From Candidatus Latescibacterota bacterium (GTDB lineage Bacteria; Latescibacterota; UBA2968; UBA8231): a stretch of 64,000 nt of DNA. How positions within the stretch are numbered: position 1 is the stretch's first letter; every line of letters starts with the position of its first letter. Below the pieces are notes generated by a model. The model saw nothing but the letters and a program-made list of their open reading frames with translations, searched no databases and was not told where the DNA came from. Shown piece after piece: positions 44,493-63,999 of this stretch. Location of the stretch: the NCBI GenBank assembly GCA_964291625.2, contig OZ220090.1, positions 864,001 through 928,000 on the forward strand. Direction: 5' to 3'. Both the position numbers and the translations under genes were made by a program.

Positions 44493-44529
44493 CTCGGCCG
44501 CCCTTGTTCAGTGTGGTATTAGATGCTCA

Positions 44530-44558
44530 AATGTATACATATCTTACTCTGCAATCAA
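44530..44558 (-). promoter_or_regulatory. Putative sigma70 promoter of the DUF5131-TcmP gene
   Basis: TTGATT-N17-TACATT on the minus strand in an AT-rich patch; palindrome ATGTATACAT (44531-44540) overlaps the -10. Confidence 0.4.
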
Positions 44559-44653
44559 CCCGGCTCCTCGACGGAGAATAGGGCAATCGCTCTATCGTCG
44601 CCGATCCCCCGGGTCTGGTGCCTCGCAACCAGTCAAGGGCTATCTTGAGCCCA

Positions 44654-46027
44654 ATGCCCACTTCCCTCGCCTTCCGCGACAGCCGGCTGCCGCAGGAGCC
44701 GTCCCAGGACGACCTGCGGGCGGCCGCCGCCGACTACGAGGCCGTCTGCCTGGCCAACATGCGCGCCGTGGTCGAGCGCTTCGAACGCCACGGCGGCGCC
44801 TATCCCTTCGTCGACACCAAGCTCGACCTGCGCTCCGGGCGGGACCACCCGGCCGGCGACCCGGTCCGGGGCCGCGACACGATCTACGGCTGGATCCAGG
44901 GCCGGGGGCTGGAGGCCGTGGCCGGTCACGCCCTCTGGGCCGAGGCGGACCCGCGCCCGCCGCTGCAGGAACTGGCGCCGCGGCTACGGGCCATGGCCGC
45001 GGCCGTCCTCGACTCGGTGCGGCGTCTGCGGGCCCGCAACGAGGGCCACCTGTTCTTCTTCATGTCCCCCGACGGCTCCCCCTTCATCATCGGCCCCGGG
45101 GACCGCCGCGAGCCGGTGGAGGTCACCGCCGCCACGCCGAGCGGCTTCAGCGACCTCTTCGGCGCCAAGGGCCTCTTCGCCGCTGCCCGCCTCCTCGGGG
45201 ACTCCGCCGCCGCAGCCGAGGCCGTGGAGTGGATGGGGCGGGTCTCGGCCGACATCTGGTCGAGGCGCTTCGCCAGCGACCAGCAGCCCCTGGACCCGAC
45301 GAACCCGATCGAGACCCTCCCCGGCCGCCACGGCCACGGGCCGTACATGATCCAGCTCGGCGCCGCCTCCCTCGGCGCCCGGGCCGGGCTTGCCGGCGCC
45401 GCCGAGGACGGGCTGCGCATGGTCCGCCACGTCCTCGACAACCACGCCAACCTGGACGGCCGCGCCGGGTTCCGGAAAGGCGACTTCTGGGAGTTCGTCG
45501 ACGACGAGGGGCAGCCCCTGCTCGACGAGGGCCTGATCCTCTCCGACCCGGGCCACGCCCTGGAGTTCGTGGGACTCGCCTTCAAGCTCCTGGGGGAGGC
45601 GGGAAACCGGTCCGAGGCCGCCGCTCTCACAGGCCCCCTCTTCCGGGTGATGGACCGGGTCTTCGGCTACGGCTTCCAGCCGGGGCCGGGCGGGATCTGC
45701 AAGGCCTACGACCTCGTGGCCCGCCGCCCCATCCACACGGACATGCCCTGGTGGAGCCTGCCCGAGACGATCCGGACGGCGGCCCTGGCCTGGCGGGCCC
45801 TGGACGACGACGGGGAGAGGCGGCGCTGCCTGCGCATCTGGGCCGCCTGCCACAACGCCTTCTTCGAGCACTTCCTGCGGCCCGAGGTTCACCTGATGGC
45901 GGTGCAGATGCGCGCCGCCGACGGCTCCGTCTCCCCGGCGATCCCGGCCACGGCCGACGCCGACCCCGGGTACCACACGGGGCTGAGCCTCCTCGACGTG
46001 GTCGAGGCCGTGAGGACCGCCCCGTGA
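44654..46027 (+). CDS. AGE/N-acylglucosamine 2-epimerase-like (alpha/alpha)6 protein
   Basis: YGWIQGR, SDLF, DPGHALEF, WWSLPET, DPGYH motifs. Confidence 0.65.
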   Translation: MPTSLAFRDSRLPQEPSQDDLRAAAADYEAVCLANMRAVVERFERHGGAYPFVDTKLDLRSGRDHPAGDPVRGRDTIYGWIQGRGLEAVAGHALWAEADPRPPLQELAPRLRAMAAAVLDSVRRLRARNEGHLFFFMSPDGSPFIIGPGDRREPVEVTAATPSGFSDLFGAKGLFAAARLLGDSAAAAEAVEWMGRVSADIWSRRFASDQQPLDPTNPIETLPGRHGHGPYMIQLGAASLGARAGLAGAAEDGLRMVRHVLDNHANLDGRAGFRKGDFWEFVDDEGQPLLDEGLILSDPGHALEFVGLAFKLLGEAGNRSEAAALTGPLFRVMDRVFGYGFQPGPGGICKAYDLVARRPIHTDMPWWSLPETIRTAALAWRALDDDGERRRCLRIWAACHNAFFEHFLRPEVHLMAVQMRAADGSVSPAIPATADADPGYHTGLSLLDVVEAVRTAP

Positions 46028-47571
46028 GCTGGGACACCGTCCTCGTCGGCGCCGGCGCCGCCGGCTGCGTCCTCGCCGCGCGTCTGTCGGAGGCCGGGCG
46101 GCGGGTGCTGCTGCTCGAGGCGGGCCCCGACTTCCCCGACCCGGAGGAGATGCCCTCGGAGGTGCGGCGGGCCTACGGCGAGCGGGGCATCTGGTCCCGG
46201 GCCTTCGGCTACAACACCCGCTTGGGATGGGGCTACCGGGCGCGCGCCACCGACACGCACCCGGACATGTACGTCCCCCGGGGCCGCCTGGTGGGCGGCT
46301 CCAGCGCCGTCAACGCCCAGATCTTCCTCCGCGGCCTGCCCGAGGACTACGACGGCTGGGCCGCCGCCGGCAACCCGGCGTGGGCCTGGGAGAAGGTCCT
46401 GCCCTGCCTGAAGCGGATCGAGGCCGACCCGGACTTCGACGACGACTTCCACGGCGCCGAGGGGCCGATCCCGGTGCAGCGGTTCTCCTACCAGGAGTGC
46501 GCGGCCGAGCAGAAGGCCTTCTACGACGTCCTGCGCGACCGGGGACAGCCCGACTGCCCCGACCACAACGACCCGGACTCCACCGGCGTCGGGCCCCTGC
46601 CCCTGAACAACGCCGGCGGCATCCGCTGGAGCGCCGCCCTCGGCTACCTGACCCCCGAGGTCAGGGCGCGCCCCAACCTGGAGATCCGGGCCCGGGCCCC
46701 GGCGGGGCGGATCGTCGTCGAAGGGGGCCGCGCCGCGGCCGTGGAGATGCGGGGTCCCGCCGGCGTGGAGCGCGTCGACGCCGGGGAGATCATCCTCACG
46801 GGCGGCGCCATCGGCTCCCCGCAGCTGCTGCTGCTCTCCGGGATCGGGCCCGCCGGCGACCTGGAGGCCCTGGGCATTCCCGTGCAGGCCGACCTGCCGG
46901 GGGTGGGCGGCAACCTGCGCTGCCACGCCCAGTGCGGCCTCAGCGTCGAGGCGCAACCCGCCTTCCTCGGCACCGGGGAGGGACCGCCCCTCCAGATGGC
47001 CTGCCGGTACACGGCCGCCGGCTCCGGCCTGCGCAACGACATGTTCCTCCACCCCGGCTCCGCCGCCCCCCGGGGCGGGTACTACCACGACACCGAGGTC
47101 GTCGGCTTCAACCTGGTGGCCTCCATCTATCTGGCCGCAGGCGCGGGAAGTCTGCGCCTGGCGTCCACCGATCCCGGACGGCAGCCGCTGCTCGACTACA
47201 ACTACCTCGGGGACTCCGCCGACCTCGACCGCATGCGCGAGGGCGTGCGGATCCTCCTCGACATGCTCGACCAGGAGGCCTTCCGCCGAATCACCCGGGG
47301 GCCGCTGAACATCTCCCCCGCCGACACCGCCTCCGACGCCGCCCTCGACGACTGGATGCGCCGCGTCGTGGCCACCAGCCACCACGTCTCCGGCACCTGC
47401 AAGATGGGCCCCGACAGCGACCCGGCGGCCGTCGTCGACGAGTGCGGCCGGGTGAAGGGGGTGGAGGGGCTGCGGGTGGCCGACGCCTCGATCATGCACG
47501 ACTGCATCCGAGCCAACACCAACCTGGCGACCATGATGATCGCCGAGCGCCTGGCCGAGCTGATGGCCTAG
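46024..47571 (+). CDS. GMC oxidoreductase (choline dehydrogenase-like)
   Basis: VGAGAAG, RGRLVGGSSAVN, SPQLLLLSGIG, HHVSGTCKMG, LRVADAS, NTN. Confidence 0.92.
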   Translation: MSWDTVLVGAGAAGCVLAARLSEAGRRVLLLEAGPDFPDPEEMPSEVRRAYGERGIWSRAFGYNTRLGWGYRARATDTHPDMYVPRGRLVGGSSAVNAQIFLRGLPEDYDGWAAAGNPAWAWEKVLPCLKRIEADPDFDDDFHGAEGPIPVQRFSYQECAAEQKAFYDVLRDRGQPDCPDHNDPDSTGVGPLPLNNAGGIRWSAALGYLTPEVRARPNLEIRARAPAGRIVVEGGRAAAVEMRGPAGVERVDAGEIILTGGAIGSPQLLLLSGIGPAGDLEALGIPVQADLPGVGGNLRCHAQCGLSVEAQPAFLGTGEGPPLQMACRYTAAGSGLRNDMFLHPGSAAPRGGYYHDTEVVGFNLVASIYLAAGAGSLRLASTDPGRQPLLDYNYLGDSADLDRMREGVRILLDMLDQEAFRRITRGPLNISPADTASDAALDDWMRRVVATSHHVSGTCKMGPDSDPAAVVDECGRVKGVEGLRVADASIMHDCIRANTNLATMMIAERLAELMA

Positions 47572-47777: not shown

Positions 47778-50474
47778 TCACTCTCTCAGGTACGCCGCTT
47801 TCCGCACGGCTTCCAGCCGTCCGTCCACCTCCAGGGCGAAAAGGTAGATTCCAGCCCCCCTATCCCCGGGCGTCCATGTGAACCGGCTGCGGCCAGCGGG
47901 CACGGCCGCGTCGACCAGAACCCCCTCATACTGGCCCAGGGTGTTGTAGACCTTGAGGGTAGCCCACGCCGTCCTGCCCAGATCGAGGTTGAATGCGACC
48001 GTTGAGGAGAAGGGATTGGGAGTCGACTCCGACAGAACGAAGGGCACCCAGGAGTCGCCCGTGCCACGATGGGTGTAGACACTGTTGGCCGCGCCCGGGG
48101 TTCCACCCGCCTCAAGGGAAGCCATCCAGCTCGCGGGGTCTTCGTTGTCCAGATCGTAGTGGCGCAGTTCCAGGGTGGGGCCGTCCCCGTCGGCCTCCTC
48201 CGGCCAGGGCGGATCATCGCCATAGACGACCGAGTCGACCAGCAAGCCGTGACGGTCGTACAGGCGAATCGATTCTCCGCTGTTCCTCAATCCGAAATCG
48301 AAGTCTCCGAGGCAAGCGGCTTGGGACAGGAACTGCAGGGCCCTTCGGTCCTGACAGAGCACGAGGAATCCACCCGGCTGAACGAGGGTTCGATCGGGCA
48401 ACACGAAGGAGTGCTCATCGTTGCCGTCCCTGAAGAACCAGCCGGACAGATCGGCCGGGTTGTCACCCGCATGGTACAGCTCGACCCAGTCCCCCGTATC
48501 CCGGCCATCGGAGGAGTGGTAGTTTATCTCGTTGATCACGACCTCCGGGGAGGGAAGGGAGATCCTGGAGTAAACCCAGTCTGCGCGAGATGTCAGCGTT
48601 GCCAGGGCAGGGTCCAGCAGCTTCAATGTATCGCCGGAGGAAATCTCAAAGAAGAGATCACCGAATACCGGTGTTCGGGGGAAGAGATGCTGGGCGACAT
48701 CTCTCTTCGAGGAGAGTACCAGGGTGTCCCCCGCGGCAAGGCGGGTCCCCGGGGGGAACATGAAGCGGTTGAAGTACTCCCCGGACTGGAAGCTGCAGTA
48801 GGCGAGGTTCAGCTCTGATCCACCGGCGTTTGCGATTTCGACGAAGTACTCATTCCGCATCTCATGGACCTCGCCAATCCTCAGCCGCTCATACTCCTTC
48901 CTGGTGGCGCCACTTGCATTCAGGGCCAGGGTCTTGGTGGCCTTGTAGTTGATGTAGAACAGGCCGTTGGGCGGATAGCTGTAGGCCCCGGCCCGGAAGG
49001 CATAGGGTACGAGGCCGAGGAAGTTGGCGGGAAGAAGGAGGCGGTTGCCGTACACCAGGTCCCCCGCCTGCAGATCGTCGTGCTGTCCGTCGTCAAAGAG
49101 GGGGAGCTTCCTGATCTCCATGGCCTCTCCCCAGGTGTAGGAAGTCAGGTCGGTAGTGTACTCGACGACTACCGATTGGGGAACGGGAGAAGTTGCGCGA
49201 AAGATGACGCCCCGATCGTCCCCCATGGTTACAGGGAATGGAGTAGAGCAGTACAGATTCGACAGGGGTTCCTTTTCGAAGAAGGTAGAGTTGGTGAGAG
49301 AGGATCTCCTGGCGCTCAAGAACCCTTTCAGGCGGGAGATCTCCCGATCAAAATCCTCGTTTGTGCCTCTCTTGAAATCATCCAGGTATACGTCAGATCT
49401 GATCAGTCCGTAAGTCGAATCGATCTGAGCCTCCACCAATTCAAAACCCCGGCCTGTAACCGTATGGACCATCTTCCAGAAGGCTCGTCGAAGAGTCTCG
49501 TACTCCATCAGCCTTTGGAACAATAGATGGTATCGAAAGGAGTAAGTCAGGTAGGTAGTTTCGAAATAGGGTCGGTATTCGCCAGTCCAGTGGTTGCCGA
49601 AAGAAGCGTCATGATCCCACGGCAGAATCTGCTCCAGCCTTCCCTCGGGGTTGAAATAGAGCAAGGTGTTCTTTACCACCGAGTCAAAGCTGGAGATCGC
49701 ATAGGCAACGGCGAAATAGTGGAGAGCACCCTCTACGTTCACAATGTGAGGCAACCGCGCCTGAAGATCCTCGTGGGACAGGTAGAAGACCTGATTGAAC
49801 AGGCGCTGCAAGTCCGTGTAGTCCGATTCTGTCCCTGCCTTCTTGTTCCATGCGACAGCATAGTTGGTGAAGTCCAGCAAGGGCGCGGTGCTCCCGGCGT
49901 TGTTCTCGGACTTGAAGAGACTGCCGGGCTGCAGATGGTAACGCTCCAGGAACTCCTCTCCAGGCTCTTCCACCTGAACGAAGACGCCCATGAACATGTC
50001 GTTGACCATGAGGCTGATGTGCCGGACAGCAGGCGCCGGATGTCCAAGGGACCGAAAGAGCATCATGGCCAGGGCGTTGCGCATCAGGGAGAGGTCGGTG
50101 TACTCGGCGTTGAGATTGAGTTCTCTCACTCCGAGTGGATTCCGGCGGTTCTCAAACCAGACTTTCCAGCTCTTCTTCCGGTGCTTGCGGGCCGTGGCTC
50201 CCCTGAACCTCACCTCGCACGCCTGCCTCTGACCGGCAAAGGAGAATCGGGCGGGGAATCGAGTCTCTTCGTGGGGTGACTGATTCAGAGCGTCCAGGTC
50301 CTGGGGATCGATGGTCAGGTGATACACGGGGAGTCTGAGCTGTTCCTCGCTGGCGAGGACAGGGATGACCGTGACGGAGACCAGGACCAGGATTGGTGCG
50401 AGGAAGGGAAGGGCCCATGTGCCATGGTCCGACTTGGCGCCGAACCGTGCATCACGCCGCAACGTCATCGCCAC
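47778..50474 (-). CDS. Secreted CotH-family kinase with lamin-tail domain(s) and FlgD/T9SS-CTD-like C-terminus
   Basis: VRFRG..KKSWKV, LNAEYTD.SLMRN, KN..LY, LPWDHDASFG; VVINEINYH..DWVELY; PNPF...VYNTLGQ; N-terminal hydrophobic signal. Confidence 0.85.
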   Translation of the reverse strand: MAMTLRRDARFGAKSDHGTWALPFLAPILVLVSVTVIPVLASEEQLRLPVYHLTIDPQDLDALNQSPHEETRFPARFSFAGQRQACEVRFRGATARKHRKKSWKVWFENRRNPLGVRELNLNAEYTDLSLMRNALAMMLFRSLGHPAPAVRHISLMVNDMFMGVFVQVEEPGEEFLERYHLQPGSLFKSENNAGSTAPLLDFTNYAVAWNKKAGTESDYTDLQRLFNQVFYLSHEDLQARLPHIVNVEGALHYFAVAYAISSFDSVVKNTLLYFNPEGRLEQILPWDHDASFGNHWTGEYRPYFETTYLTYSFRYHLLFQRLMEYETLRRAFWKMVHTVTGRGFELVEAQIDSTYGLIRSDVYLDDFKRGTNEDFDREISRLKGFLSARRSSLTNSTFFEKEPLSNLYCSTPFPVTMGDDRGVIFRATSPVPQSVVVEYTTDLTSYTWGEAMEIRKLPLFDDGQHDDLQAGDLVYGNRLLLPANFLGLVPYAFRAGAYSYPPNGLFYINYKATKTLALNASGATRKEYERLRIGEVHEMRNEYFVEIANAGGSELNLAYCSFQSGEYFNRFMFPPGTRLAAGDTLVLSSKRDVAQHLFPRTPVFGDLFFEISSGDTLKLLDPALATLTSRADWVYSRISLPSPEVVINEINYHSSDGRDTGDWVELYHAGDNPADLSGWFFRDGNDEHSFVLPDRTLVQPGGFLVLCQDRRALQFLSQAACLGDFDFGLRNSGESIRLYDRHGLLVDSVVYGDDPPWPEEADGDGPTLELRHYDLDNEDPASWMASLEAGGTPGAANSVYTHRGTGDSWVPFVLSESTPNPFSSTVAFNLDLGRTAWATLKVYNTLGQYEGVLVDAAVPAGRSRFTWTPGDRGAGIYLFALEVDGRLEAVRKAAYLRE

Positions 50475-51222
50475 GGCCCCTTCCTTCGAGACAGCTGTCG
50501 ATGACGTAGCGGTACTTCGAGTATCCGCGCTGCACCAGACAGAAGCGCTTGATCAGGTCCAGGGCCCAGAACGGCACCAGGGACTCGGTCTTGATCTCCA
50601 GGACGACGGGAGAGTCCGTCCACTGCGCGGTGACCTCGTCGTCGTAGTAGCTCATCTCCCCGTCAGGGCTCCACAGGTCGTATGAACCGCGCATCAGGCG
50701 GTAGCGCATGGCGCGGTCGAAGGTGATGCGGCCGTAAGCGTCGACCTCGCTGACGAAGGGCTCCCGTTCGTAGCGCACGTGCAGGACTGGTTCGGTACCG
50801 TACAGATGGTGCAGGTCGACGAAGGTGCGGGGCATGGCCTCGCGCCGGGGCGGTGTGCGGTCCCGCCGGCGGACTTGAAGCACCTCGGGCCACTCGCTCG
50901 CGGCGATGCGCTCGCGGACCTTCCAGACGGTGCGGCTGTGCCGGTACTTGACCTCGAGGGTGGCGGACTCGACGCGGCCGGTGCCGTAGTAGCGGACCCT
51001 CGGCTTGAAGCGCAACAGCTGGCGTAGTCGGGTGTCGTGGTAGAAGCGCAACCCGGGCGTGTCCATGTAGACGCTGTTGACCGTGTAGCCTGGCTCCTCC
51101 GCGGGGAGGTTGGCGTCGAGGGAGAACAGGGGCTGGATGAACTCGCGGATCTCCGCGGCCAGCTCTTCGGTCACCGTGTACTTCAGCTCGTACCGGTGGA
51201 TGGGGGCGAGGTCAACCGCCAT
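50452..51222 (-). CDS. VTC-domain (polyphosphate polymerase, CYTH-like tunnel) protein
   Basis: RYELKY, NSVYMDTP, KPRVRYY, LEVK, YEREPF, RITFD, VLEIK, YSKY. Confidence 0.88.
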   Translation of the reverse strand: MAVDLAPIHRYELKYTVTEELAAEIREFIQPLFSLDANLPAEEPGYTVNSVYMDTPGLRFYHDTRLRQLLRFKPRVRYYGTGRVESATLEVKYRHSRTVWKVRERIAASEWPEVLQVRRRDRTPPRREAMPRTFVDLHHLYGTEPVLHVRYEREPFVSEVDAYGRITFDRAMRYRLMRGSYDLWSPDGEMSYYDDEVTAQWTDSPVVLEIKTESLVPFWALDLIKRFCLVQRGYSKYRYVIDSCLEGRGRGDDVAA

Positions 51223-52528
51223 GGCCCCTCTCCTGCGGCGGCAGCGGCGGCAGCGACTGCGGACCGTCGATCCCCAGCTTGTAGTACAGGAAGTAGAGGG
51301 CGTGGGACAGATCGCGCTCGCCCTCGGCGATGGCGACCTGGGCATCCAGGATCGTGCGCTCCAGTTCGAGGATCTCGTCCGCCGGCACCGTGGGGTGGTC
51401 GTACGTCCGGACGACCACGAGCGACGCGGCCTGGATGACGGCCTCCCCCTCCCGTCGAGTCAGGTTGCGGGCGAGCAGTGCCTCGGCGTAGTCGGAAAGC
51501 CCTTCGCAGACCTCGTCGGCAATGCGCTGCCGAACCGCTGCGGCCTCCAGCCCGCTCTCGGACACCGCAAGGGAGAGGCCGGCCAGGTTGTCCGCATTGC
51601 GGTTGAACAGAGGGAGCTCCACCCCGAAGGCCAGCTCGTGCCAGTCGTCTTCACCCCCCTCGACATGTCGCGACATCTCCAGGAAGGACAACTGCGGCAG
51701 GAGTCGCCGCCTCTCGAAGTCGTGCCTGTCGAGGGCGAGCTGGTGCCTCTCCTCGGCCAGACGAAGCTCCGGGCGGTTGGCGTAGGCGAGGGTCACGAGC
51801 TCTTCCTCGTTCCCGACGATCCCGGGAAGGGGCTCGGCGGCCAGCTGGATCCGCGCCGAGACGCCCGTCAGACGCCGCAACCTGCGCTCCTCCTCCCGCA
51901 GCGCATGCAGACTTCGAAGGTGGACCTGCCGCGCCTCGGCGACGGCCGTCCTGGCCTTGGTGAGGTACACGATCGACCGCCGGCCATGATCGACCATGGT
52001 CTCGATCTGGGAGATCCGCCGGCTCTCGTTCTCGATCCGCATCGCTGCCAGGCGCGCCAGCTCGGCGTACATGGTGAGGTCGGCGCAGGACCGGCGCACC
52101 CGCGAGGCCAGCCAGTGCCGCTCGCGTATGGCCTCGGCCCTGCGCTCCCACATCGTCACTTGCCTCCGCTGTCTGCGCACCCTCGCTTCGCCGAGTGCCG
52201 GCGGACGCCAGCGGATGCCGATCTCGTACTCGTCGATCCGGGCCCTCCTGCGCCGGGCGGCCAAGTTGCGCACGCGGATCTCGGGATTGTCGATCCAGTC
52301 GAGGGAGCGCATGCGGTGAGTGCGGAGATCGGCCTCTGACTCGAGCAGGCCGATCCTGGGGTTGTTGCGCAGACCGATGGCCACCGTCTCTTCGATGGTC
52401 AGGGGCAGCTCCTGTCCCTCGCCGCCGGCAGCCCCCGCGTCCTGGCCGCCCTCGCTCGGGGCCGCAGTCGAGCAGAGGCCGACGCCGAGGGGGACCAGCA
52501 CGGCTGCGAGAGACCGGCCGCAGCTCAT
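51212..52528 (-). CDS. TolC/CzcC-family outer membrane efflux protein
   Basis: Signal peptide, LTIEETVAIGLRNNP, AYANRPEL, LLPQL, GVELPLFNRN; coiled-coil pattern. Confidence 0.8.
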   Translation of the reverse strand: MSCGRSLAAVLVPLGVGLCSTAAPSEGGQDAGAAGGEGQELPLTIEETVAIGLRNNPRIGLLESEADLRTHRMRSLDWIDNPEIRVRNLAARRRRARIDEYEIGIRWRPPALGEARVRRQRRQVTMWERRAEAIRERHWLASRVRRSCADLTMYAELARLAAMRIENESRRISQIETMVDHGRRSIVYLTKARTAVAEARQVHLRSLHALREEERRLRRLTGVSARIQLAAEPLPGIVGNEEELVTLAYANRPELRLAEERHQLALDRHDFERRRLLPQLSFLEMSRHVEGGEDDWHELAFGVELPLFNRNADNLAGLSLAVSESGLEAAAVRQRIADEVCEGLSDYAEALLARNLTRREGEAVIQAASLVVVRTYDHPTVPADEILELERTILDAQVAIAEGERDLSHALYFLYYKLGIDGPQSLPPLPPQERGHGG

Positions 52529-53613
52529 GGCCCGGCTCTCCCCTCGGCCGCGCCGCGCCCTGCGCCAGTAGCCGCGAAGATCACGGAGGATCGATCGACG
52601 AGGCCCACGCGCACCGACTCGCCAGGCAGCAGAAGGTGACCGGCCTCGAGGACGACGCGCACCTTGCGGGCCCACAGCATCTGCCCGCGAAGCCACAGCC
52701 GCTCCGGCATCGGTGAGTACCCTGGATGGACGAAGTCGATCCGCCCCCTGGCGTCGAAATCGCTCGACCGTCTCGACATCACTTCCACCGCCTGTCCGAC
52801 CCGCCACTGCAGGTCCTCGGTCTCCGGCACGTAGACCTCCACCACGGAGACCTCGGCGCTCTCCACGGTGATGATGGGCAGGAAGGCGTCGACCGTACTG
52901 CCCGGCCGAGCCAGGATCCGGGAGACCAGGCCCGCAGAGGGCGACCTGACCGTTCGATACTCGATGCGCTGGTCTATCCGCGTGATCGACTGGCGGACCT
53001 CGTGGATGCGCTGCATGCGGTCTCCGAGAAGGGAGGTCAGGACGCTGTCGCCGAAGGCCGGATCGTCGCTGCCGAGCTGCACCACCTCGGGCCGGAGGAG
53101 CGCCGACCGTTCGGCGACGGACCGCGCCAGGGCATCGCGGCGAATGGTCATGCGGGTCAGGTCCCGGTCATGGCCCAGGCCGGCCTTCTCCGCGGCCACC
53201 AGGGCGTCGATCTCCCGGCCGAGGGCGTCGAGCTCCGCCTCCTCGGCCTGTACCTCGGCGTATTCCCCGGAGACGCGCAGCCGCAGCAGGTCGTACTCGA
53301 CGTGGTGGCGGCGCCGGTCCGCCGCCGCGATCGACTCCAGGACGGTCAGCTCTTCCGCACGCAGTCGCCTCTCCGCCGACAGGTCCGACACGTCCAGGCG
53401 AGCCAGGACCTGTCCGGCCACGACGGTCTCGCCCACTGCGGCGTGGATCTCGTGGATGGTCCCCCCTTCGCGCGCACCCACCGACTGCTCCGTCGACACG
53501 ACGGTACCCAACAGATACGGATCGACCTGCCACTGCCAGTAGCCGCAGACGGCAGCGATCACGGCCGCGACCCACAGGCCACGGAAGGAGTTCTTCGTCA
53601 GCCAACGCTTCAT
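52525..53613 (-). CDS. HlyD-family periplasmic adaptor
   Basis: N-terminal TM, lipoyl halves GETVVAGQVLARLD and VRSPSAGLV..PG, VYVPE, GRIDFVHP, LLPG. Confidence 0.85.
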   Translation of the reverse strand: MKRWLTKNSFRGLWVAAVIAAVCGYWQWQVDPYLLGTVVSTEQSVGAREGGTIHEIHAAVGETVVAGQVLARLDVSDLSAERRLRAEELTVLESIAAADRRRHHVEYDLLRLRVSGEYAEVQAEEAELDALGREIDALVAAEKAGLGHDRDLTRMTIRRDALARSVAERSALLRPEVVQLGSDDPAFGDSVLTSLLGDRMQRIHEVRQSITRIDQRIEYRTVRSPSAGLVSRILARPGSTVDAFLPIITVESAEVSVVEVYVPETEDLQWRVGQAVEVMSRRSSDFDARGRIDFVHPGYSPMPERLWLRGQMLWARKVRVVLEAGHLLLPGESVRVGLVDRSSVIFAATGAGRGAAEGRAGP

Positions 53614-53616
53614 GGA

Positions 53617-54300
53617 CTACACCTCGACTGCCGAAGTGTGGTTCATGAAGGTCAGCCCGCGAATGCCTTCGATCTCTCCCAGGGCCTCGATCAGTCGCGT
53701 CGCATCCGCCTCCCGGACGAGCTTGACCTGGTAGGTGCAGTCCACCAGGTCGCCCTGGGCCACGTCGCGCATCGTCACCAGGCCGAAGGTCCGCGGTATC
53801 TGCTGCAGTACCTGGGCTACCTGGGCGGCGAAGTCGGGCGCCGCCGGGATCTGGAAGCGCACGAGTCCATCGTATTTCATGCGCGTGCCGAAACGAGAGG
53901 AATGCATGACCACGGCGATGGTACAGAACAGGGCCGTGGCGAAGGCGGCAGCGATGTAGCTCTGCACCCCGCTGGCCACGCCCGCACCGAGAGCGGCGAA
54001 GAGGAAGACCAGGTCCCGGGGATCGCGCAGGTTGGTGCGGAAACGTATGATCGCCAGCGATCCCACGATGCCGATGCCCCGGGCCACGTTGTCGCCGATG
54101 GCGATCATCAGCAGACAGGTGACGAGGCTGCCCAGGACCATGGTCTCCATCAAGCCCCGCGACCAGGAGAGGCCCTGGAACGTCCACTCGTAGACCACGG
54201 CGATCGTGCTCGACAGGCAGAAGGCGACTACCAGGGAGAGCAGCACCGTGTTCCAGTGGAGCTTGATCGTCCCGAAATCGAGCAACAGGCTGTCCATCAT
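53617..54300 (-). CDS. DUF4956-family membrane protein
   Basis: IGDNVARGIGIVGSLAIIRFRTNLRDPRD..FLF...G; C-terminal soluble domain; AAGGAG RBS. Confidence 0.88.
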   Translation of the reverse strand: MMDSLLLDFGTIKLHWNTVLLSLVVAFCLSSTIAVVYEWTFQGLSWSRGLMETMVLGSLVTCLLMIAIGDNVARGIGIVGSLAIIRFRTNLRDPRDLVFLFAALGAGVASGVQSYIAAAFATALFCTIAVVMHSSRFGTRMKYDGLVRFQIPAAPDFAAQVAQVLQQIPRTFGLVTMRDVAQGDLVDCTYQVKLVREADATRLIEALGEIEGIRGLTFMNHTSAVEV

Positions 54301-54333
54301 CCGATCTCCTTCATTTGGACACAGCGCCACACG

Positions 54334-54349
54334 TGCAAGAATTGTGCCG
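54334..54349 (-). promoter_or_regulatory. Sigma54 (-24/-12) promoter of the DUF4956-HlyD-TolC-VTC-CotH operon
   Basis: Minus strand CGGCACAATTCTTGCA: GG-N10-GC, close to the TGGCAC-N5-TTGC consensus, 33 nt before the ATG. Confidence 0.8.
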
Positions 54350-54436
54350 TCCACGAGGCCCCGGCCGCGGTACCGCCCCGGCCTGTCTCTGGCTGCACCC
54401 CGGACCACTGGCAGGAGACAGTCCCATCGGTGGTCC

Positions 54437-54520
54437 GTCCGGTTCTCCGGGACGACTCCGTCTTTCCGCTTTCCTGGACGGGCCTTCGGCCCGGTCGGCG
54501 CTCCGTCCGATTCTCCGGAC
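54437..54520. promoter_or_regulatory. Three GTCCG-N6-CGGAC-like dyads, candidate enhancer (UAS) sites
   Basis: GTCCGgttctcCGGGA (54437-52), TTCCGctttccTGGAC (54464-79), GTCCGattctcCGGAC (54505-20). Confidence 0.55.
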
Positions 54521-54652
54521 CGGGGCAGCAGCCGGCCCGGGGCATGGCAGACCGCCGGCCCCACCGGTGCCGGCGCGGCCGACTTGCAGACGATCAGGGT
54601 GCTGAGGGGGCGAGGGAGACGCAGAGGCCGCGTCTCCCCGGGACGCGGCGGG

Positions 54653-57600
54653 CTACTCGCGGGAGGCCGGGATCACCTGGAGGAGCTGGCGCTGCCGCAG
54701 CTCTCCATCCTCCAGGTACACACAGACGTACAGTCCAGGAGACACCAAGCGGCCGCCGCGGTCGGTTCCATCCCAGGCGAGGGTGCGGCTCTCCGGACCT
54801 GCGGTCAGTCTCTCCACCAGCTCGCCCGCCGTGTTGAAGATCCGTATCTCGACTCTTCCCGAGCCACGGAACCAGAAGGTCGCGGGCTGCCCCCGCGAAA
54901 CCGGATTGGGATAGCTGTAGACGGCGATCTGCTCGTCGATCACCTGCGCCGTCAGGATCACGGTGCGGGTGCCCCCGTCCCCGGTCAGGCTCAGGGTCTC
55001 CTCGATCCTCTCCGACTCCCCCGACAGACCGCCGTCGATCCCCGACCGGAAGAGGATCCACACCTCCGCCGTATCCCCGGGCGCCAGGCTGAAGGACGAC
55101 AGTTCCGCGGCGAACTGCCGGGTGTCGTCGACTGTCCGGGGATCGAGATTGAGCCGTGCATCGCCGCGGTTGTGCACCGGCAGGCTCTTCCACAGGGAGT
55201 CGCCCACGGAGACGGCGCCGAAGTCCAGGGTATCGGCAAGGACTTCCAGCACGGGCGCCACTCCTGTGATCGTGAACGACACCTGGATTGTCGGCTGGTC
55301 GGGATCGCTGCTGTCTATGGTCAGGACACTCGAGTCCGGGCCGAGCCGATCGGGAGAGACACGGATCGTGATCTCGCTGGTCTCCCCGGGTTCCAGGGGC
55401 CAGGGAAAGCGGTCCTCCAGAGCCTCCATGGGCTCACCGTCCCAGAGGAATCCCTCGATGACCAGCTCTGCCTCACCCGTGTTGGCAAGGGTCAGGACCA
55501 CCGGGACGGCCTGATCTGCCCGGACCTCGCCCAGTTCCACCAGGCGCGGCTCGACTTCCAGGCGCGGCTTGATTCCCCGCCCCCTCAGCGGCACGTCGAG
55601 GAAGCTCTTGTCAGGGTCGTTGCTGGTCAGGCCCAACGATGCCTCCACAATACTGGCGTCGCGAGGACTGAAGGTGACCACCACGGTCGTATCCCTCCCC
55701 GGTTCCAGGTCGAAGGACTCGGGCGATACCTGGAATTGCTCATCCGTCGTCGCTGCGCCCACACCCAGCAGACCTGTGCCGCTGTTTTCCACGACCAGGG
55801 TCTCTTCGCCGGACTTGCTCACGGCCACTTCTCCGAAGAAGACCGTATCGGAGACGGATACCTGGATCTGCGGCTTCTGGCTGCCGGCTTTGAGATCGAC
55901 GATGATCACCGGCGCATTCGGATCGTTGGTCGTGAGCACCAGCGCCGCCTCAATCCTCGGGTAGTTGGCCGAAGGATCGAATTTCAGCTCCATGACCAGA
56001 CTGTCACCCGGACTGATGCTGACCCCGGGGCCGGGGCGCTCCACCTCGAACTCCGGTTTGGTGGTGATGAGCTGGTTGATCACCAGATCGGCCTCGCCCC
56101 GGTTGTAGAGCGTCAATTCCCTGTGGACGGGCTCGCCGGAGATGCCGAAGTCGACGCGATCGGAGGACAGACCGATCTCGGGGATCAGCTGGGACATGAC
56201 AATGCTCACGCTGTCGCTCTCGAGCCCCGGGGCGGCGACCTTCACCGTGGCGATTCCGGGCAGGGTGCCCGCGGTAAAGGAGACGCTGGCCATGCCCTCC
56301 ACCACCACGGCGCTGGACACCTCCAGGTCGCCCAGATCCTCGGGACCTTCGACAATCGAGAAGGAGATCTCCGTACTGTTGTCGGTCTTGAGCCGCCCCC
56401 CGAGGGAGTCCTGCACCACGGCGGTCAGGATCGACGTGTCCTCGCCGTTGGCCCGGATGCTCGCAGGTGAGGCGGTGAGGACGATCTTGAACCGGGTCAG
56501 GACGATACCGAAGGCCCCTCCCCCGACGGTGCCGGCGTAGACTTGCCGGGGACGAGAGAGCCCCATGGCCACGGAGAGCACATCGGGGTGGGTCAGACCC
56601 GGCTCGATGGGCTGCCAGCTGTCGCCGCCGTCCAGGCTGCGGAAGACCCCGCCGCGGGTGCCGGCGTACAGGTGTGATGAATCGGCCGGGTCCGCGACCA
56701 GGGCGCGAATCGACGAAGAGGTCAGCCCCGCGTTGATCCCCTCCCAGGTGAGGCCGTCGTCCAGGCTGCGGAAGATCCCGCCGTCGGTTCCGGCAAAGAC
56801 GGCACGGCCCGCCCCATCCAGGGCCAGGGCCCGCACCGCCAGCCCCCCCATGCCGGCGCTCGAGGGCGTCCAGGTCGAGCCCCCGTCCCCGCTGCGGTAG
56901 ACCCCCTCCCCGGTGCCGGCAAAGACAACCTGCCCCCCCGGATGCAGGGCCAGGGCCCGCACCGACAGGGCAGCCAGCCCCTGGCCGTCGGACGGCCAGC
57001 TCAATCCCCCGTCGAGGCTGCGGAAGACCCCCTTCTCCGTGCCCGCAAAGACGGTCGTCCCCGTCGCCCCCGCCGCCAGGGACTGCACGGTCAGGGTATC
57101 CAGCGCCTCGGCCGCTGACGACCAGGTCGAGCCGCCATCGAGGCTGCGGAAGACTCCGCTGCGAGTGCCGGCGAACATCCGCAGAGGCGAACCCGGGTCG
57201 ACCAGGAGCGCATGGACGTCCAGCTCGGCCTGACTGCGCGTCCAGGAAGCGCCCCCGTCGAAGCTGCGGAAGATCCCGGACTCCCCCCCCGCGTGCAGGC
57301 GCAGTGCGTCGGAAGGATCGACGGCCAGGGTGCGCACCGACATGGCTGACAGACCGGTGTTCGCCTCCTCCCACCTCGTCCCCCCGGCGAGGCGGAACAC
57401 CCCGGCCCGGGTACCCGCATACAGCCGCGAGCCGTCGAGGGAATCCAGCCACAGGGCACGCACGGGTACCGTGGGCAGGCCCTCGTCGAGAGCGGTCCAG
57501 GAAGCGCCCCCGTCGAGGCTGCGGAAGACCCCGGACCCGCCCGCCGCGTAGAGCCGCAGGTCGTCGGAGGGGTCGACGGCCAGTGCCTCGACCGCTGACA

Positions 57601-58336
57601 GCCGGGACCCCTCGCCGGCCGGCTCCCAGCTGGCGCCCCGGTCGCCGCTGCGGAAGAGGCCGGCGTCCGTGCCCGCGTACACCCATGCCAGGCCGCCGTC
57701 CACGGCCAGGACCGATACCCCGGCCCCGTCCAGCCCCTCGCCGGCGTCGCTCCACGTCTGCCCCCTGTCCTCGCTCAGGAAGACGCCGGCCTCCGTACCC
57801 GCGTACAGCCGCAGGGTATCGGCGGCCTCCACGGCCAGGGCATGCACGGGACCCGCCAGCCCCTGGCTGGGGTTGTTCCACGTCACCCCCCCGTCCGTCG
57901 TCGACAGAAAGCCGGCGTCCGTACCCGCGTACGCGCGCAGGGGGTCGCGGGGATCGATGGCCAGGGCCGCCACCGACAGAGGCTCCGACTCCTCCCCGGA
58001 GGACCACGTCGCGCCGCCGTCCAGGCTGCGGAACAACCCGGCATCGGTGCCGGCCAACAGGTAGGAGGGGCGGTCCGGGTGCACCGCGAGACTCCGCACG
58101 ACCCGGCCGGCGATGCCGGAGGCGGTCCAGGTCGCGCCCCCGTCGAGGCTGCGGAAGACCCCATCCATGGTGCCGGCATACACGACCTGCCCGTCGCCCG
58201 GCCGCGTGGCCAGGGCCTGGACCGGCCCCCCGTAGAGACCGAGCGGACTCCAGAGATTGTCGGCGCTCCAGGCCCTCGGCGCGGCTCCGAGCAGCATCAC
58301 GCCCGCCAGCAGGCTTCGCCTCCCCCGCGCCGTCAC
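54653..58336 (-). CDS. Large secreted protein: BNR/Asp-box beta-propellers + Big_1-like + four ASH/choice-of-anchor-D-like Ig domains + FlgD-like CTD
   Basis: Signal peptide; 13 GxFRSxDGGxxW-type repeats; LTASPASIRANG; DFG.V...N.G...L...ND units; YPNP...IFNTAGELV...WDG. Confidence 0.85.
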   Translation of the reverse strand: MTARGRRSLLAGVMLLGAAPRAWSADNLWSPLGLYGGPVQALATRPGDGQVVYAGTMDGVFRSLDGGATWTASGIAGRVVRSLAVHPDRPSYLLAGTDAGLFRSLDGGATWSSGEESEPLSVAALAIDPRDPLRAYAGTDAGFLSTTDGGVTWNNPSQGLAGPVHALAVEAADTLRLYAGTEAGVFLSEDRGQTWSDAGEGLDGAGVSVLAVDGGLAWVYAGTDAGLFRSGDRGASWEPAGEGSRLSAVEALAVDPSDDLRLYAAGGSGVFRSLDGGASWTALDEGLPTVPVRALWLDSLDGSRLYAGTRAGVFRLAGGTRWEEANTGLSAMSVRTLAVDPSDALRLHAGGESGIFRSFDGGASWTRSQAELDVHALLVDPGSPLRMFAGTRSGVFRSLDGGSTWSSAAEALDTLTVQSLAAGATGTTVFAGTEKGVFRSLDGGLSWPSDGQGLAALSVRALALHPGGQVVFAGTGEGVYRSGDGGSTWTPSSAGMGGLAVRALALDGAGRAVFAGTDGGIFRSLDDGLTWEGINAGLTSSSIRALVADPADSSHLYAGTRGGVFRSLDGGDSWQPIEPGLTHPDVLSVAMGLSRPRQVYAGTVGGGAFGIVLTRFKIVLTASPASIRANGEDTSILTAVVQDSLGGRLKTDNSTEISFSIVEGPEDLGDLEVSSAVVVEGMASVSFTAGTLPGIATVKVAAPGLESDSVSIVMSQLIPEIGLSSDRVDFGISGEPVHRELTLYNRGEADLVINQLITTKPEFEVERPGPGVSISPGDSLVMELKFDPSANYPRIEAALVLTTNDPNAPVIIVDLKAGSQKPQIQVSVSDTVFFGEVAVSKSGEETLVVENSGTGLLGVGAATTDEQFQVSPESFDLEPGRDTTVVVTFSPRDASIVEASLGLTSNDPDKSFLDVPLRGRGIKPRLEVEPRLVELGEVRADQAVPVVLTLANTGEAELVIEGFLWDGEPMEALEDRFPWPLEPGETSEITIRVSPDRLGPDSSVLTIDSSDPDQPTIQVSFTITGVAPVLEVLADTLDFGAVSVGDSLWKSLPVHNRGDARLNLDPRTVDDTRQFAAELSSFSLAPGDTAEVWILFRSGIDGGLSGESERIEETLSLTGDGGTRTVILTAQVIDEQIAVYSYPNPVSRGQPATFWFRGSGRVEIRIFNTAGELVERLTAGPESRTLAWDGTDRGGRLVSPGLYVCVYLEDGELRQRQLLQVIPASRE

Positions 58337-61825: not shown

Positions 61826-61829
61826 GGAC

Positions 61830-63860
61830 TCACCGCTGCTTGAGACGGTACTTGCGGATCAGGTCGTAGAGACGGCTGCGCGACAGGCCCAGATCGCCGG
61901 CCACCGCCTCCAGCTGCCAGTCCTTCTCCTCGAGCTTGTCCAGGATCCACTTGCGCTCGAATGCCTCGCGGGCCTTGCGCAAGGTCAGACCCTTGTCGAG
62001 ATCGAGCTCGGCCGCTTCCTCGGGCCCCTCCTGCAGGCGGCCCCAGAGGTGAAGGGCCTGCAGGCGCTCTCCCCCGGCCATGGCCCGGGAGTAGGTCAGC
62101 TGGTTCTCCAGCTCGCGGATATTCCCCGGCCACGGATAGCCTCCGAGCAGTTCCAGGGCCGCCGGGTCGATCCCGGCGGGGTAGTCGGCCAGGAAGTGCT
62201 CCACCAGCAGCGGCACATCCATGAGCCGCTCGCGCAGGGGCGGCAGGGGGATGACCATCACGTAGAGGCGGTAGAACAGGTCGGCTCGGAACCGCCCCTC
62301 GGCGACCTCCTTGTCGAGGTCCCGGTTGGTGGCGCAGACCAGGCGCACGTCCACCGGGCGCGGATGCTCCTCGCCCACCCGCTGTACCTCCCCCTCCTGC
62401 AGGACCCGCAGCAGCTTCACCTGGGTGGAGGGGCTGGTCTCGCTGATCTCGTCCAGAAGCAGAGTGCCGCCGGTCGCTGCCTCGAACAGTCCCTTGCGAT
62501 CCTGTTCCGCCCCGGTGTAGGCCCCCTTCCTGTGACCGAACAGCTCGCTCTCGAGCAGACTCTCGGTCAGGGCGCCGCAGTTGATGCCGATGAACGGCCC
62601 CTCCCGCCGGGCGCTCGTCCGGTGGATCGTGCGCGCCACCTCCTCCTTCCCCGTGCCGGTCTCGCCGTGGACCAGCACGGTTATGTCCGATTCACTCGCC
62701 TTCTGCATGAGGGCGAAGACGCGCCGCATGTTGTGGCTCTGACCGATGATGTGGGGGAACGGCTGCTCCCCCCGGGGCACGGGTTCGACCTGGGGCAGGT
62801 GCACACCTCCGCCCGCCGGGACCGGGGCCTCTTCGCCTCCCGTTCCTCCCCCGTCCCGTGCGCGCCGCAGGGCTTCTTCCAGCAGCCGGTTGCGGATGCG
62901 GCAGAGACCATCGTCCCTCCGGCGAACGGCCCCCAGCAGTTCCATCCGGGTAACCACCGGGGAGGTGCGGTCGTGGCGCGGCGGCTCTCCGCCGTCGAGC
63001 AGGGCCCCGAGCCACCGGGCGCCCTCGGCCGAACGGGTGAGGCCCGCCACGACCCGCTGCAGATTGTCGTCGCCGCCGTTGAGCAGATGCTCCGCCGCCT
63101 CTCCGACCCCCAGGTCGGGATGCTCTTCCAGGAGCGCACACAGGCGCGCCGTGAGATTGGGGTGCCCCTGGGTCCACTCGTAGACCGGGGCGGTCAGGGA
63201 CCCCCCTCTGGCGTCGGCCCGCTCGAGGAGCTGGAGCATCTGCCCGACCCCCTCGATGTCGAAGTCGGTGGTGTAGACCTCCTCGCTGATGTTGAAGGGC
63301 GACAGACCGCTCTCCGGAGCGATGAGGGTTCGCGGGTCCGTGGCCCCGGCCAGGACGAATACATATCGCTCGAACTCGGGCTGGGTAGCGCGTTCGTTGT
63401 AGACCGTGCGGATGGTGCCGAAGAAGCCCTCCCGCCAGGGCTCGGGAATCGCCTCGAACTCGTCGAGAGTCACGACGATGCGCTTCACCCCGGCGCAGCC
63501 CGCTATCGTCTTGAGGTCCTGGTAGAACCCGATCGATTCGGCGCCGGCTTCCACCGTGGTCCGCTCCGCCACGGAGAGGGCCCCGGCAATGCGATCCCCG
63601 ACAAAGCCGTAGAGCTGGGCGCATCCGGCGTCCTTCACCGGGGTCAGGTCGATCGGCACCGAGACGTACACGTCGGCTGACAGGCGGCGGTGCAGGTGAT
63701 ACAGGAGGCTGGTCTTTCCCGTCTGGCGGGCCCCCAGCACCGTCACGTAGTGGCCGCGCCGGACCAGTTCCAGCACTTCGTCGTCCACCGCTCTCTCCAC
63801 GTAGAGGCTCTGGTCGGGATCGGCGATGGGACCGCGCGTCTGGATCTTCCTCGGTGCCAT
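61830..63860 (-). CDS. AAA_35/STAND-like NTPase fused to a sigma54 enhancer-binding AAA+ domain and Fis-type HTH
   Basis: YVER, GARQTGKTS, TLDEFE, SPFNI, WTQGHP; then GETGTGKE, ESELFGH.KGAYTGA, LDEI, RFRADLFYRL, WPGNIREL, LGLSRSRLY. Confidence 0.88.
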   Translation of the reverse strand: MAPRKIQTRGPIADPDQSLYVERAVDDEVLELVRRGHYVTVLGARQTGKTSLLYHLHRRLSADVYVSVPIDLTPVKDAGCAQLYGFVGDRIAGALSVAERTTVEAGAESIGFYQDLKTIAGCAGVKRIVVTLDEFEAIPEPWREGFFGTIRTVYNERATQPEFERYVFVLAGATDPRTLIAPESGLSPFNISEEVYTTDFDIEGVGQMLQLLERADARGGSLTAPVYEWTQGHPNLTARLCALLEEHPDLGVGEAAEHLLNGGDDNLQRVVAGLTRSAEGARWLGALLDGGEPPRHDRTSPVVTRMELLGAVRRRDDGLCRIRNRLLEEALRRARDGGGTGGEEAPVPAGGGVHLPQVEPVPRGEQPFPHIIGQSHNMRRVFALMQKASESDITVLVHGETGTGKEEVARTIHRTSARREGPFIGINCGALTESLLESELFGHRKGAYTGAEQDRKGLFEAATGGTLLLDEISETSPSTQVKLLRVLQEGEVQRVGEEHPRPVDVRLVCATNRDLDKEVAEGRFRADLFYRLYVMVIPLPPLRERLMDVPLLVEHFLADYPAGIDPAALELLGGYPWPGNIRELENQLTYSRAMAGGERLQALHLWGRLQEGPEEAAELDLDKGLTLRKAREAFERKWILDKLEEKDWQLEAVAGDLGLSRSRLYDLIRKYRLKQR

Positions 63861-63885
63861 GGATGCTCTCTTCGGTGGCTGGCGC

Positions 63886-63999
63886 CTACGCGGAGGCCAG
63901 GTTATCTCCGTTCGCCGCGGCCAGGTCCCGGGCAAACCCCGTTCCCGGCTTCACCTGCTCGATGGCCTCGGCGATGTTCTTCACTCTGTGGAGGATGTC
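63886..63999 (-). CDS. 3' end of a gene entering from the right edge, product unknown
   Basis: Open frame DILHRVKNIAEAIEQVKPGTG...LASA* ending TAG 25 nt before the activator start. Confidence 0.45.
   Translation of the reverse strand, partial: DILHRVKNIAEAIEQVKPGTGFARDLAAANGDNLASA

Follow-up and report, generated by a model that had tools for sequence, protein, structure and literature searches.

What might leave a cell through a periplasmic adaptor and an outer-membrane channel that are encoded beside a polyphosphate polymerase-like enzyme, with none of the classical pumps among them? This question is raised by an operon in a 64,000-nt stretch of DNA from a Candidatus Latescibacterota bacterium (assembly GCA_964291625.2, contig OZ220090.1, positions 864,001 to 928,000). 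The whole of this stretch is called the window below. Positions 47778-54300 of the window hold five co-directional minus-strand genes, identified with Pfam as follows.

53617..54300, minus strand: DUF4956 inner-membrane protein, 227 aa (Pfam DUF4956, 44.4 bits)
52525..53613, minus strand: membrane-fusion protein (MFP), a HlyD/EmrA-type periplasmic adaptor, 362 aa (Pfam HlyD_D23, 45.2 bits; HlyD_3, 38.4 bits)
51212..52528, minus strand: outer-membrane factor (OMF) of TolC/CusC fold, 438 aa (Pfam OEP, 30 bits; profile search; AlphaFold2 (AF2) model with Foldseek)
50452..51222, minus strand: VTC-domain protein, 256 aa, a soluble triphosphate-tunnel enzyme and predicted polyphosphate polymerase (Pfam VTC, 95.2 bits)
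47778..50468, minus strand: CotH kinase-like protein, predicted to be secreted, 896 aa, with two lamin-tail domains (LTD) and a C-terminal beta-sandwich tail (Pfam CotH, 187 bits; LTD, 97 bits)

We propose that the four core genes, from DUF4956 to VTC, encode an envelope-spanning machine that would both synthesize inorganic polyphosphate (polyP) and export it, a reading to which we give a probability of roughly 45%. It builds on what was observed: which genes are present, their conserved order, the folds and catalytic residues of the products, and that a classical pump is missing. What the enzyme does, every contact between the proteins, which substrate is transported and in which direction, and what CotH contributes are all inferred from these.

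A cassette with a conserved gene order

The start codons of the operon were fixed by comparison with orthologues. The open reading frame (ORF) of DUF4956 spans 53617-54564, with its true start at ATG 54300, preceded by the ribosome-binding site AAGGAGA. The OMF (ORF 51212-52807) starts at ATG 52528, VTC (ORF 50452-51345) at ATG 51222 and CotH (ORF 47778-50474) at ATG 50468, the last of these chosen against the related locus L002. The junctions, as read from the sequence, are a 3-nt gap between DUF4956 and the MFP, a 4-nt ATGA overlap between the MFP and the OMF, an 11-nt overlap between the OMF and VTC, and a 17-nt overlap between VTC and CotH (23 nt with a GTG start). An original prediction, made from the window alone, had described five packed genes here with DUF4956 as the only polytopic inner-membrane protein. 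The coordinates agree with it exactly, and so do the membrane segments: five helices are predicted in DUF4956 and just one N-terminal hydrophobic (anchor) helix in the MFP.

How widely is this arrangement kept? A scan with a VTC alignment, restricted to one genome per species and followed by tblastn with the window proteins and delimitation of the ORFs, gave 67 loci. The genes stand on one strand in the order DUF4956-MFP-OMF-VTC in 50 of these (49, plus L047, where VTC runs off the contig). In nine others a contig end cuts the cassette, yet the OMF lies directly upstream of VTC; five begin at VTC and are uninformative; and L067, from Patescibacteria, and L068 carry VTC-DUF4956 without an MFP or an OMF. 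Intergenic gaps range from -26 to +23 nt in most cassette loci. According to record titles and tree labels the cassette occurs in at least eight diderm phyla (Latescibacterota, Gemmatimonadota, Myxococcota, Fidelibacterota, Calditrichota, KSB1, Ignavibacteriota and Bacteroidota), and the loci closest to ours are labelled Latescibacterota. Because the gene order recurs in 50 of the 67 loci, the arrangement is far beyond chance, and the expectation that HlyD and TolC genes are conserved together with VTC and DUF4956 has been borne out.

All 48 cassette rows fall on one side of a long branch (2.96, SH-aLRT 100) when 78 VTC proteins are placed in a quick maximum-likelihood tree, so that a single origin is possible. 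VTC and DUF4956 of the cassette form a separate, long-branched subfamily. As a side observation, L003 and L004 lie on one chromosome as two MFP-OMF-VTC copies with equal identity values to the window; L004 is a partial copy that lacks DUF4956 and begins within the MFP, and a segmental duplication or an artefact of the assembly explains the pair.

VTC and DUF4956 are also found together in other settings. VTC was detected in 87 genomes of a 151-genome sample from the phylum of locus L016 (a tally that includes the unpublished G149 and G093, of which no other use was made). Of 106 listed places with enough flanking sequence we picked 38, non-randomly (20 top-scoring and 18 lower), and added two places from other genomes. 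With our own hidden Markov models (HMMs) the 40 regions resolved into seven cassettes, three weak VTC matches standing alone and 30 adjacent pairs of VTC and DUF4956. Directly upstream of VTC in 21 of these 30 loci, an HMM of family A7 finds a conserved gene (349-367 aa), which represents a second MFP lineage. Its alignment (11 rows) matches the cassette MFP profile with an hhalign probability of 98.9% (E 2.9e-17, 12% identity), its PDB matches are MacA, EmrA, ZneB and AcrA, and one member carries Pfam HlyD_3. Examples of the MFP-VTC-DUF4956 operon, among loci L099-L136, are L109:6871-9421 and L129:6022-8571. Three diderm architectures can be told apart, namely DUF4956-MFP-OMF-VTC, MFP-VTC-DUF4956 and DUF4956-VTC, the last standing beside a CotH-like gene in some loci, and one genome (G003) holds both of the first two. 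Among Gram-positive bacteria, according to the available portions of two preprints, pel operons of streptococci, clostridia and bifidobacteria have cotH, DUF4956 and a gene for a polyP polymerase as neighbours; the authors note a Vtc4-like tunnel and a four-helix membrane protein with an ACT domain among the products (10.1101/768473; 10.1101/2024.04.20.589940).

Enzyme, membrane protein and duct

The enzyme is the component that can be compared most directly with a known protein. The VTC domain of the window scores 95.2 bits against a Pfam cut-off of 23, and its profile aligns with yeast Vtc4 (3g3q, E 7.6e-7) and also matches 5iiq and 8i6v. In the profile alignment, K200, R264, R266, K281 and Y359 of Vtc4 correspond to K15, R76, R78, K93 and Y152 of the window protein, and R361, E426, S457 and K458 to R154, E210, S236 and K237; the correspondence was counted by hand, allowing for a 3-residue tag offset. 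Across 78 bacterial sequences of every type, eight of the nine positions never vary, and conservation of K15 reaches at least 90%. In Vtc4, according to the available text of a recent preprint, the triphosphate is held by six basic residues, S457 and Y359, and Mn2+ by E426, and inactive Vtc2 and Vtc3 have Ile or Leu in place of K458 (10.1101/2023.01.27.525886). Of the nine triphosphate- and Mn2+-binding residues kept in the window protein, eight are confirmed by mutation in yeast.

By Pfam the 256-aa window protein consists of the VTC domain only, with neither the SPX domain nor the three-helix transmembrane domain of eukaryotic Vtc2/3/4; its homologues measure 244-282 aa, in a search whose range stopped short of longer forms. 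Because the catalytic residues are conserved, the window VTC carries what a polymerase needs, and polyP is its most likely product. The same genome (5.9 Mb in two contigs), which has one copy each of the VTC and CotH genes, encodes both PPK1 and PPK2, and VTC would therefore be an extra, specialized enzyme. In the available excerpts of the literature, bacterial polyP is held to come from PPK1 and PPK2 and to stay inside the cell, and the VTC route is regarded as eukaryotic.

What kind of protein is the membrane partner? An AF2 model of DUF4956 from a 29-row alignment (predicted local distance difference test, pLDDT, 77.7) has five helices at residues 16-134 and a C-terminal beta-alpha-beta-beta-alpha-beta, ACT-like domain at residues 144-226. 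Foldseek returns ACT domains, and the C-terminal domains of the MgtC proteins from P. aeruginosa and M. tuberculosis (7qa5 and 2lqj, E 2-4e-3) are among the top ten. Pfam MgtC also matches all three divergent DUF4956 members that were searched, at 17.0, 18.3 and 19.6 bits against a gathering threshold of 31.4 (E 0.001-0.008), and the alignment spans positions 1-117 of 121 and covers the whole transmembrane part. Fold and sequence searches gave no solved relative for the membrane part, and no likeness to Vtc1 was seen in them. DUF4956 is MgtC-like in build, not Vtc1-like. The idea of a split Vtc-like synthase and translocase thus survives in its catalytic half, where the residues of Vtc4 are kept, and had to be given up for a Vtc1-like membrane half.

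DUF4956 is the best-conserved protein of the cassette, with 52-93% identity across phyla (VTC 40-88%, MFP 31-86%, OMF 27-88%). Y37, G80, R86-F87-R88, D96, F101, G107 and G111 are invariant in 78 sequences, and by the positive-inside rule the loop RFRT..RDPRD would face the cytoplasm. Prediction of a complex between DUF4956 and VTC ended in 'no answer' with a score of 0.00, which counts neither for nor against binding. Some further observations concern this family. In L020 (5886-6311) the gene is apparently truncated or frameshifted, with a 141-aa ORF and a 253-nt gap before the MFP, in a cassette that is otherwise complete. Contig C1 of the window genome holds two more DUF4956 paralogues without a VTC gene (L139:4169-6081 and L140:1469-5208); one of them overlaps the start of a phytase-like/SdiA-regulated propeller gene, and the other comes after a 923-aa Omp85-superfamily protein. 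It may be that envelope proteins more generally have DUF4956 proteins as their partners in the inner membrane.

The adaptor is recognized by HlyD_D23 and HlyD_3, both above their Pfam cut-offs, and below threshold by the NCBIfam models RND_mfp and EmrA; its PDB matches are EmrA, MexJ and MacA (E 0.001-0.01). It comes in two sizes, a short form of 333-405 aa, to which 19 of 50 loci including the window belong, and a long form of 653-697 aa in the other 31. The extra C-terminal half of the long form is a beta-propeller, with DUF6929, DUF6910 and phytase-like matches in five of five proteins tested, three of them above the DUF6929 cut-off. Profile searches gave no PDB relative for this fused propeller, and its matches in the Atlas are limited to DUF3616, DUF6929, DUF6910 and phytase-like clusters. 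Three of the loci with a short MFP (L015, L033 and L042) have a separate NHL/phytase-like/SdiA-regulated propeller gene nearby, and an HMM search of the window genome found no homologue of the MFP-type propeller at E <=1e-3.

The channel needed more effort to identify, as its Pfam OEP match is weak (30 bits) and a PDB search with the single sequence gave no match. A profile of 50 orthologues (family A5) matches CusC over its full length (E 1.1e-9) and also SilC, TolC, OprM and MtrE. The AF2 model (pLDDT 89.5) has the two-repeat pattern of strands and long helices, and its best Foldseek matches are TolC structures (E 5.5e-17, TM-score 0.64-0.69). The weak OEP match is a true TolC-family protein.

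That no known class of pump accompanies this adaptor and channel had been part of the original prediction, and this is confirmed. No pump gene of the ABC, RND, MFS or PET type was found in the operon or in the scanned flanking ORFs of the window (37149-47571 and 54653-63935); these flanking ORFs encode no transporter of any other kind either. We also scanned the genes that flank the cassette in 49 loci, taking ORFs no shorter than 180 aa and a maximum of two per side. A single one of these 136 neighbouring ORFs encodes a pump component, a MacB_PCD/FtsX protein that lies 0.9 kb upstream in L045. Other transporters among the neighbours are an SSF symporter (L040), PHO4 with PhoU_div (L058) and an ion channel (L006 and L009).

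Proposed export of polyphosphate and its alternatives

How would these parts work together? Soluble VTC, at the cytoplasmic face, would polymerize the gamma-phosphate of ATP into polyP, like yeast Vtc4. The growing chain would pass to an oligomer of DUF4956, probably by way of the invariant basic loop (RFRT..RDPRD), and cross the inner membrane there. The membrane-anchored MFP, which in most lineages bears a periplasmic beta-propeller, would bridge the periplasm to the OMF, and the OMF would release the polymer at the cell surface, where secreted LTD and CotH neighbours may bind or use it. Because a TolC duct is present, export is the most likely fate of the polyP. Phosphate-related neighbours also count in favour of polyP, namely PHO4 with PhoU_div in L058 and the phytase-like propellers fused to or beside the MFP. 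A bolder version, in which polymerization drives the trans-envelope machine, LTD proteins hold polyP at the surface and this polyP also serves CotH kinases as phosphoryl donor, seems to us rather doubtful.

We take the MFP and the OMF to work with VTC and DUF4956 because these two are partners everywhere else, because the genes for MFP and OMF stand as an insertion between the two, because no classical pump is present and because a second MFP lineage has been recruited to the same pair. The adaptor and channel might instead serve a pump encoded elsewhere and owe their place among VTC and DUF4956 to shared regulation or chance: OMFs, and sometimes MFPs, are shared with unlinked pumps, as for E. 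coli TolC, a MacB-type permease does lie upstream of L045, and the window genome (G000) encodes additional MFP-like and OMF-like ORFs. Such an account would have to accommodate an insertion that is kept in 50 loci of at least eight phyla with overlapping stop and start codons, cassette VTCs that share one side of a branch with support of 100 in the quick tree, an independent MFP lineage that is also linked to VTC-DUF4956, and 135 of 136 neighbours that are not pump components. We regard it as highly improbable.

A number of observations weigh against the proposed synthase-exporter. Nine of the 30 other diderm loci are ordered DUF4956-VTC and have no MFP, and no OMF gene was found within about 8 kb in any of the 30 with an HMM of limited reach (the cassette-derived HMMs missed the divergent MFP in 21 of these loci and could also miss divergent OMFs). 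Because nine loci are without an MFP and 21 have one without an adjacent OMF, crossing of the outer membrane is not general to the VTC-DUF4956 module. For the same nine loci the anticipated rule that HlyD and TolC accompany the module in diderms and not in monoderms fails; its monoderm side draws on L067 and the two preprints cited above. The cassette is, moreover, an accessory trait: DUF4956 of the cassette type (at least 60% identity) occurs patchily, in seven of 121 genomes in the sample of the window phylum, and in none of seven congener genomes that are 76-96% complete. Of 49 loci, 30 have no CotH gene in the immediate vicinity of the cassette. As to the membrane step, the Vtc1 channel subunits are not relatives of DUF4956, which is exposed to the periplasm so slightly that the MFP would have little surface to dock on, and we know of no MgtC-family protein that conducts anything. 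As to the enzyme, the literature searched held no report of polyP synthesis by any bacterial VTC-domain protein, and other tunnel enzymes of the TTM/CYTH superfamily are triphosphatases or cyclases.

The last point is also the natural starting place for a different account, in which the locus encodes a tripartite exporter of another cargo (a small molecule, a metal-phosphate complex or an ion), with DUF4956 as a new transporter and VTC as a motor or regulator, not a polymerase. Small molecules or proteins are the usual cargo of MFP-OMF systems, MgtC relatives are tied to Mg2+ and phosphate physiology, not to polymers, and the conserved synteny fits this account and the polyP reading equally well. 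We nevertheless consider it unlikely: the polymerase residues of Vtc4 are present as a complete set, including the Lys that is missing from the inactive Vtc2/3, the Pfam match is to VTC, not to a different CYTH family, and the recurrent neighbours are LTD/CotH surface proteins, not resistance or metabolic genes.

Alternatively, polyP made by VTC and DUF4956 might stay in the cell or the periplasm, where it could be an envelope-bound store, act as a buffer or supply polyphosphorylation, and the MFP and OMF would be a scaffold or have some other purpose. The 30 diderm loci just described fit with this, and so do the monoderm loci and the Patescibacteria locus L067, which lack both MFP and OMF, and the periplasmic position of the propeller that is fused to the MFP. 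In the available text of the S. intermedius preprint, the authors likewise suggest that polyP may remain cytoplasmic (10.1101/2024.04.20.589940). The OMF, on the other hand, has a complete TolC fold and is kept in all 50 full cassettes, where a duct without cargo would be unusual, and PPK1 is already available for making internal polyP. Retention is an account that we likewise consider unlikely, and the envelope-spanning polyP synthase-exporter is the reading we carry forward, with a small remainder of the probability given to none of these accounts.

Surface-protein neighbours, regulation and known systems

Proteins of the cell surface are frequent companions of the cassette. CotH stands beside it in 19 of 49 loci (18 found by the ORF scan and L008 by tblastn), and LTD proteins without CotH in 12 more, most of these comprising three LTDs and a tail of the type IX secretion system (T9SS), so that 31 of the 49 loci have a CotH or LTD surface protein as neighbour. 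CotH is therefore a frequent neighbour of the cassette, as had been foreseen, and not a fixed member of it. The window CotH matches B. cereus 5jd9 (E 1.2e-34), and its D264 and D287 correspond (numbering offset derived by hand) to D228 and D251, which the available text on B. subtilis CotH gives as the catalytic Asp residues (PMC7821199); both are kept. An N-terminal hydrophobic segment is visible in its sequence, and its own tail has no Pfam match. Homologues carry FlgD_ig or Por_Secre_tail domains, and the window genome encodes SprA and at least 19 Por_Secre_tail matches. The possibility that CotH is a type I substrate of HlyD/TolC was considered and rejected, given the N-terminal signal-like segments of CotH and LTD proteins and the T9SS tails of homologues.

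The GC content of the CotH gene is 55-61%, against about 70% around it, and the protein is 90% identical to the CotH of L008 and 57% to that of L002, the opposite of the core genes, which are closer to L002. A CotH module seems to have been exchanged between lineages. A role for CotH as a polyP-using kinase is attractive in view of its gene neighbourhood and intact catalytic Asp residues, and these are its whole basis. Weak CotH matches also adjoin VTC in five of the nine loci without an MFP (L116, L125, L126, L131 and L132), and that of L125 is the only one confirmed by Pfam (56 bits). Upstream of DUF4956-VTC-CotH in the same locus (L125:4042-7216) lie genes for a PEP mutase (phosphonate synthesis), a GT2 glycosyltransferase and a dehydrogenase.

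Three further features of the window lie upstream of the operon.

54334..54349, minus strand: sigma-54-type promoter-like motif CGGCAC-N5-TTGCA (pattern scan; function inferred)
54653..58336, minus strand: BNR/sortilin-propeller and ASH/HYDIN-Ig surface protein, 1227 aa (Pfam)
61830..63935, minus strand: sigma-54 enhancer-binding protein (Pfam Sigma54_activat, 235 bits)

L002 and L008 likewise have the BNR/sortilin protein immediately upstream of the cassette (87% and 89% identity, respectively). Its gene is followed by a 352-nt gap with a hairpin after the stop codon, and the protein is possibly cassette-associated, yet a separate transcription unit. Giant BNR/sortilin-propeller proteins are also found upstream in two Myxococcota loci (L039:99-5897 and L046:20-5515), and in three other loci the gene immediately upstream of the cassette encodes a Cthe_2159-type beta-helix protein of about 600 aa (L025:3863-5707, L044:3975-5774 and L065:3332-5185). 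The PHO4 phosphate transporter and PhoU_div beside a Myxococcota cassette are at L058:10782-12433. Between the BNR/sortilin protein and the sigma-54 activator, the window has a 571-aa ORF of no assigned family and a caspase/PEGA protein. The other flank has a GMC oxidoreductase, a DUF5131 protein, an MR_MLE_C (enolase C-terminal-like) protein and an FAD-linked oxidase, together with a 256-aa ORF (41234-42004) that has no Pfam match. The DUF5131 protein (557 aa, 42819-44492, minus strand) has the full domain (326 bits) and lies inside a local GC dip (61%).

The near-consensus sigma-54-type motif sits 34 nt upstream of the DUF4956 start codon; a search of both strands of the 64-kb window for the pattern [CT]?GG[CT]A[CT]-N5-TTGC[ATC] gave no other match. 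The motif recurs at the same place in L002 and L008 only; overall it is present in three of 48 loci, against a background of 0.004 per 260 nt. The sigma-54 activator gene, 7.5 kb upstream of the cassette, is a candidate regulator, and its connection with the motif is conjectural. A scan for sigma-70 promoters gave no sites, and two terminator-like sites are within the range of chance. Contigs of an RNA library labelled as sponge metagenome (X7), which are 96-99% identical, cover pieces of VTC, OMF, MFP and DUF4956, and one of them bridges the OMF/VTC junction. This is a weak hint of transcription, with DNA carry-over as a possible source. Relatives of the core genes also occur in DNA contigs of two sponge-metagenome runs (X6 and X10) and of X2.

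If the proposal is true, bacteria would have a second polyP synthase besides the PPK route; the cassette would also be the first route dedicated to exporting polyP, and it would provide MFP-TolC systems with a new engine. If the machine is in fact driven by polymerization, it would provide the first transport function for the large MgtC/DUF4956 superfamily. The cassette further suggests a testable way in which secreted CotH-type kinases could be supplied with a phosphoryl donor outside the cell, where ATP is absent. The polyP of symbionts is considered important for phosphorus cycling in sponges (Zhang et al. 2015, as described in a citing passage), and relatives of the cassette occur in sponge-metagenome contigs, from a habitat where symbiont polyP is held to matter.

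How does the cassette compare with systems that are already known? Its membrane protein is built like the MgtC/SapB family, with five helices in the membrane and an ACT-like cytoplasmic domain after them, although it stays below the MgtC gathering threshold (17-19.6 against 31.4 bits) and is assigned to DUF4956. To our knowledge MgtC has not been linked to VTC, an MFP or an OMF. The three-gene module of cotH, polyP polymerase and DUF4956 is already in print for the Gram-positive pel loci, where the same three families are adjacent, there without an MFP or OMF and, in the available portions of those preprints, without an assigned function (10.1101/768473; 10.1101/2024.04.20.589940). Our literature search, with supplements and subscription journals outside its range, found nothing on a link of VTC-DUF4956 to an MFP and OMF, or on an MgtC-like DUF4956 in this setting.

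With EmrAB-TolC, MacAB-TolC and HlyBD-TolC (type I secretion) the cassette shares a membrane-anchored HlyD/EmrA-like adaptor and a TolC-fold channel, which it encodes side by side; it differs in that it has no ABC, MFS, RND or PET transporter and that its MFP bears an extra propeller in 31 of 50 loci. Synthase-dependent secretion of exopolymers (alginate by Alg8/Alg44/AlgK/AlgE, cellulose, poly-N-acetylglucosamine and Pel) follows the same concept of a polymerase, a periplasmic bridge and an outer-membrane exit, and an MFP-like periplasmic domain is present in Alg44. The proposed polymer of the cassette is inorganic polyP, in contrast, and no glycan, with a soluble tunnel enzyme in place of a membrane glycosyltransferase and a TolC-type duct in place of a beta-barrel porin and TPR protein. 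By Pfam the cassette has no membrane glycosyltransferase synthase, and the likeness to exopolysaccharide secretion is one of working principle only.

The eukaryotic VTC complex (Vtc4/Vtc3 or Vtc2/Vtc1), in which synthesis of polyP is coupled to its translocation across a membrane, has the same catalytic tunnel domain and shares the nine triphosphate- and Mn2+-binding residues, and in both systems a cytoplasmic polymerase is encoded with a membrane partner. The cassette differs in having no SPX domain and no fused DUF202/Vtc1-type three-helix domain; its membrane partner is separate, unrelated and MgtC-like. Whereas the eukaryotic complex is directed to the lumen of the vacuole, the cassette would, by way of its MFP and OMF, be directed to the cell envelope.

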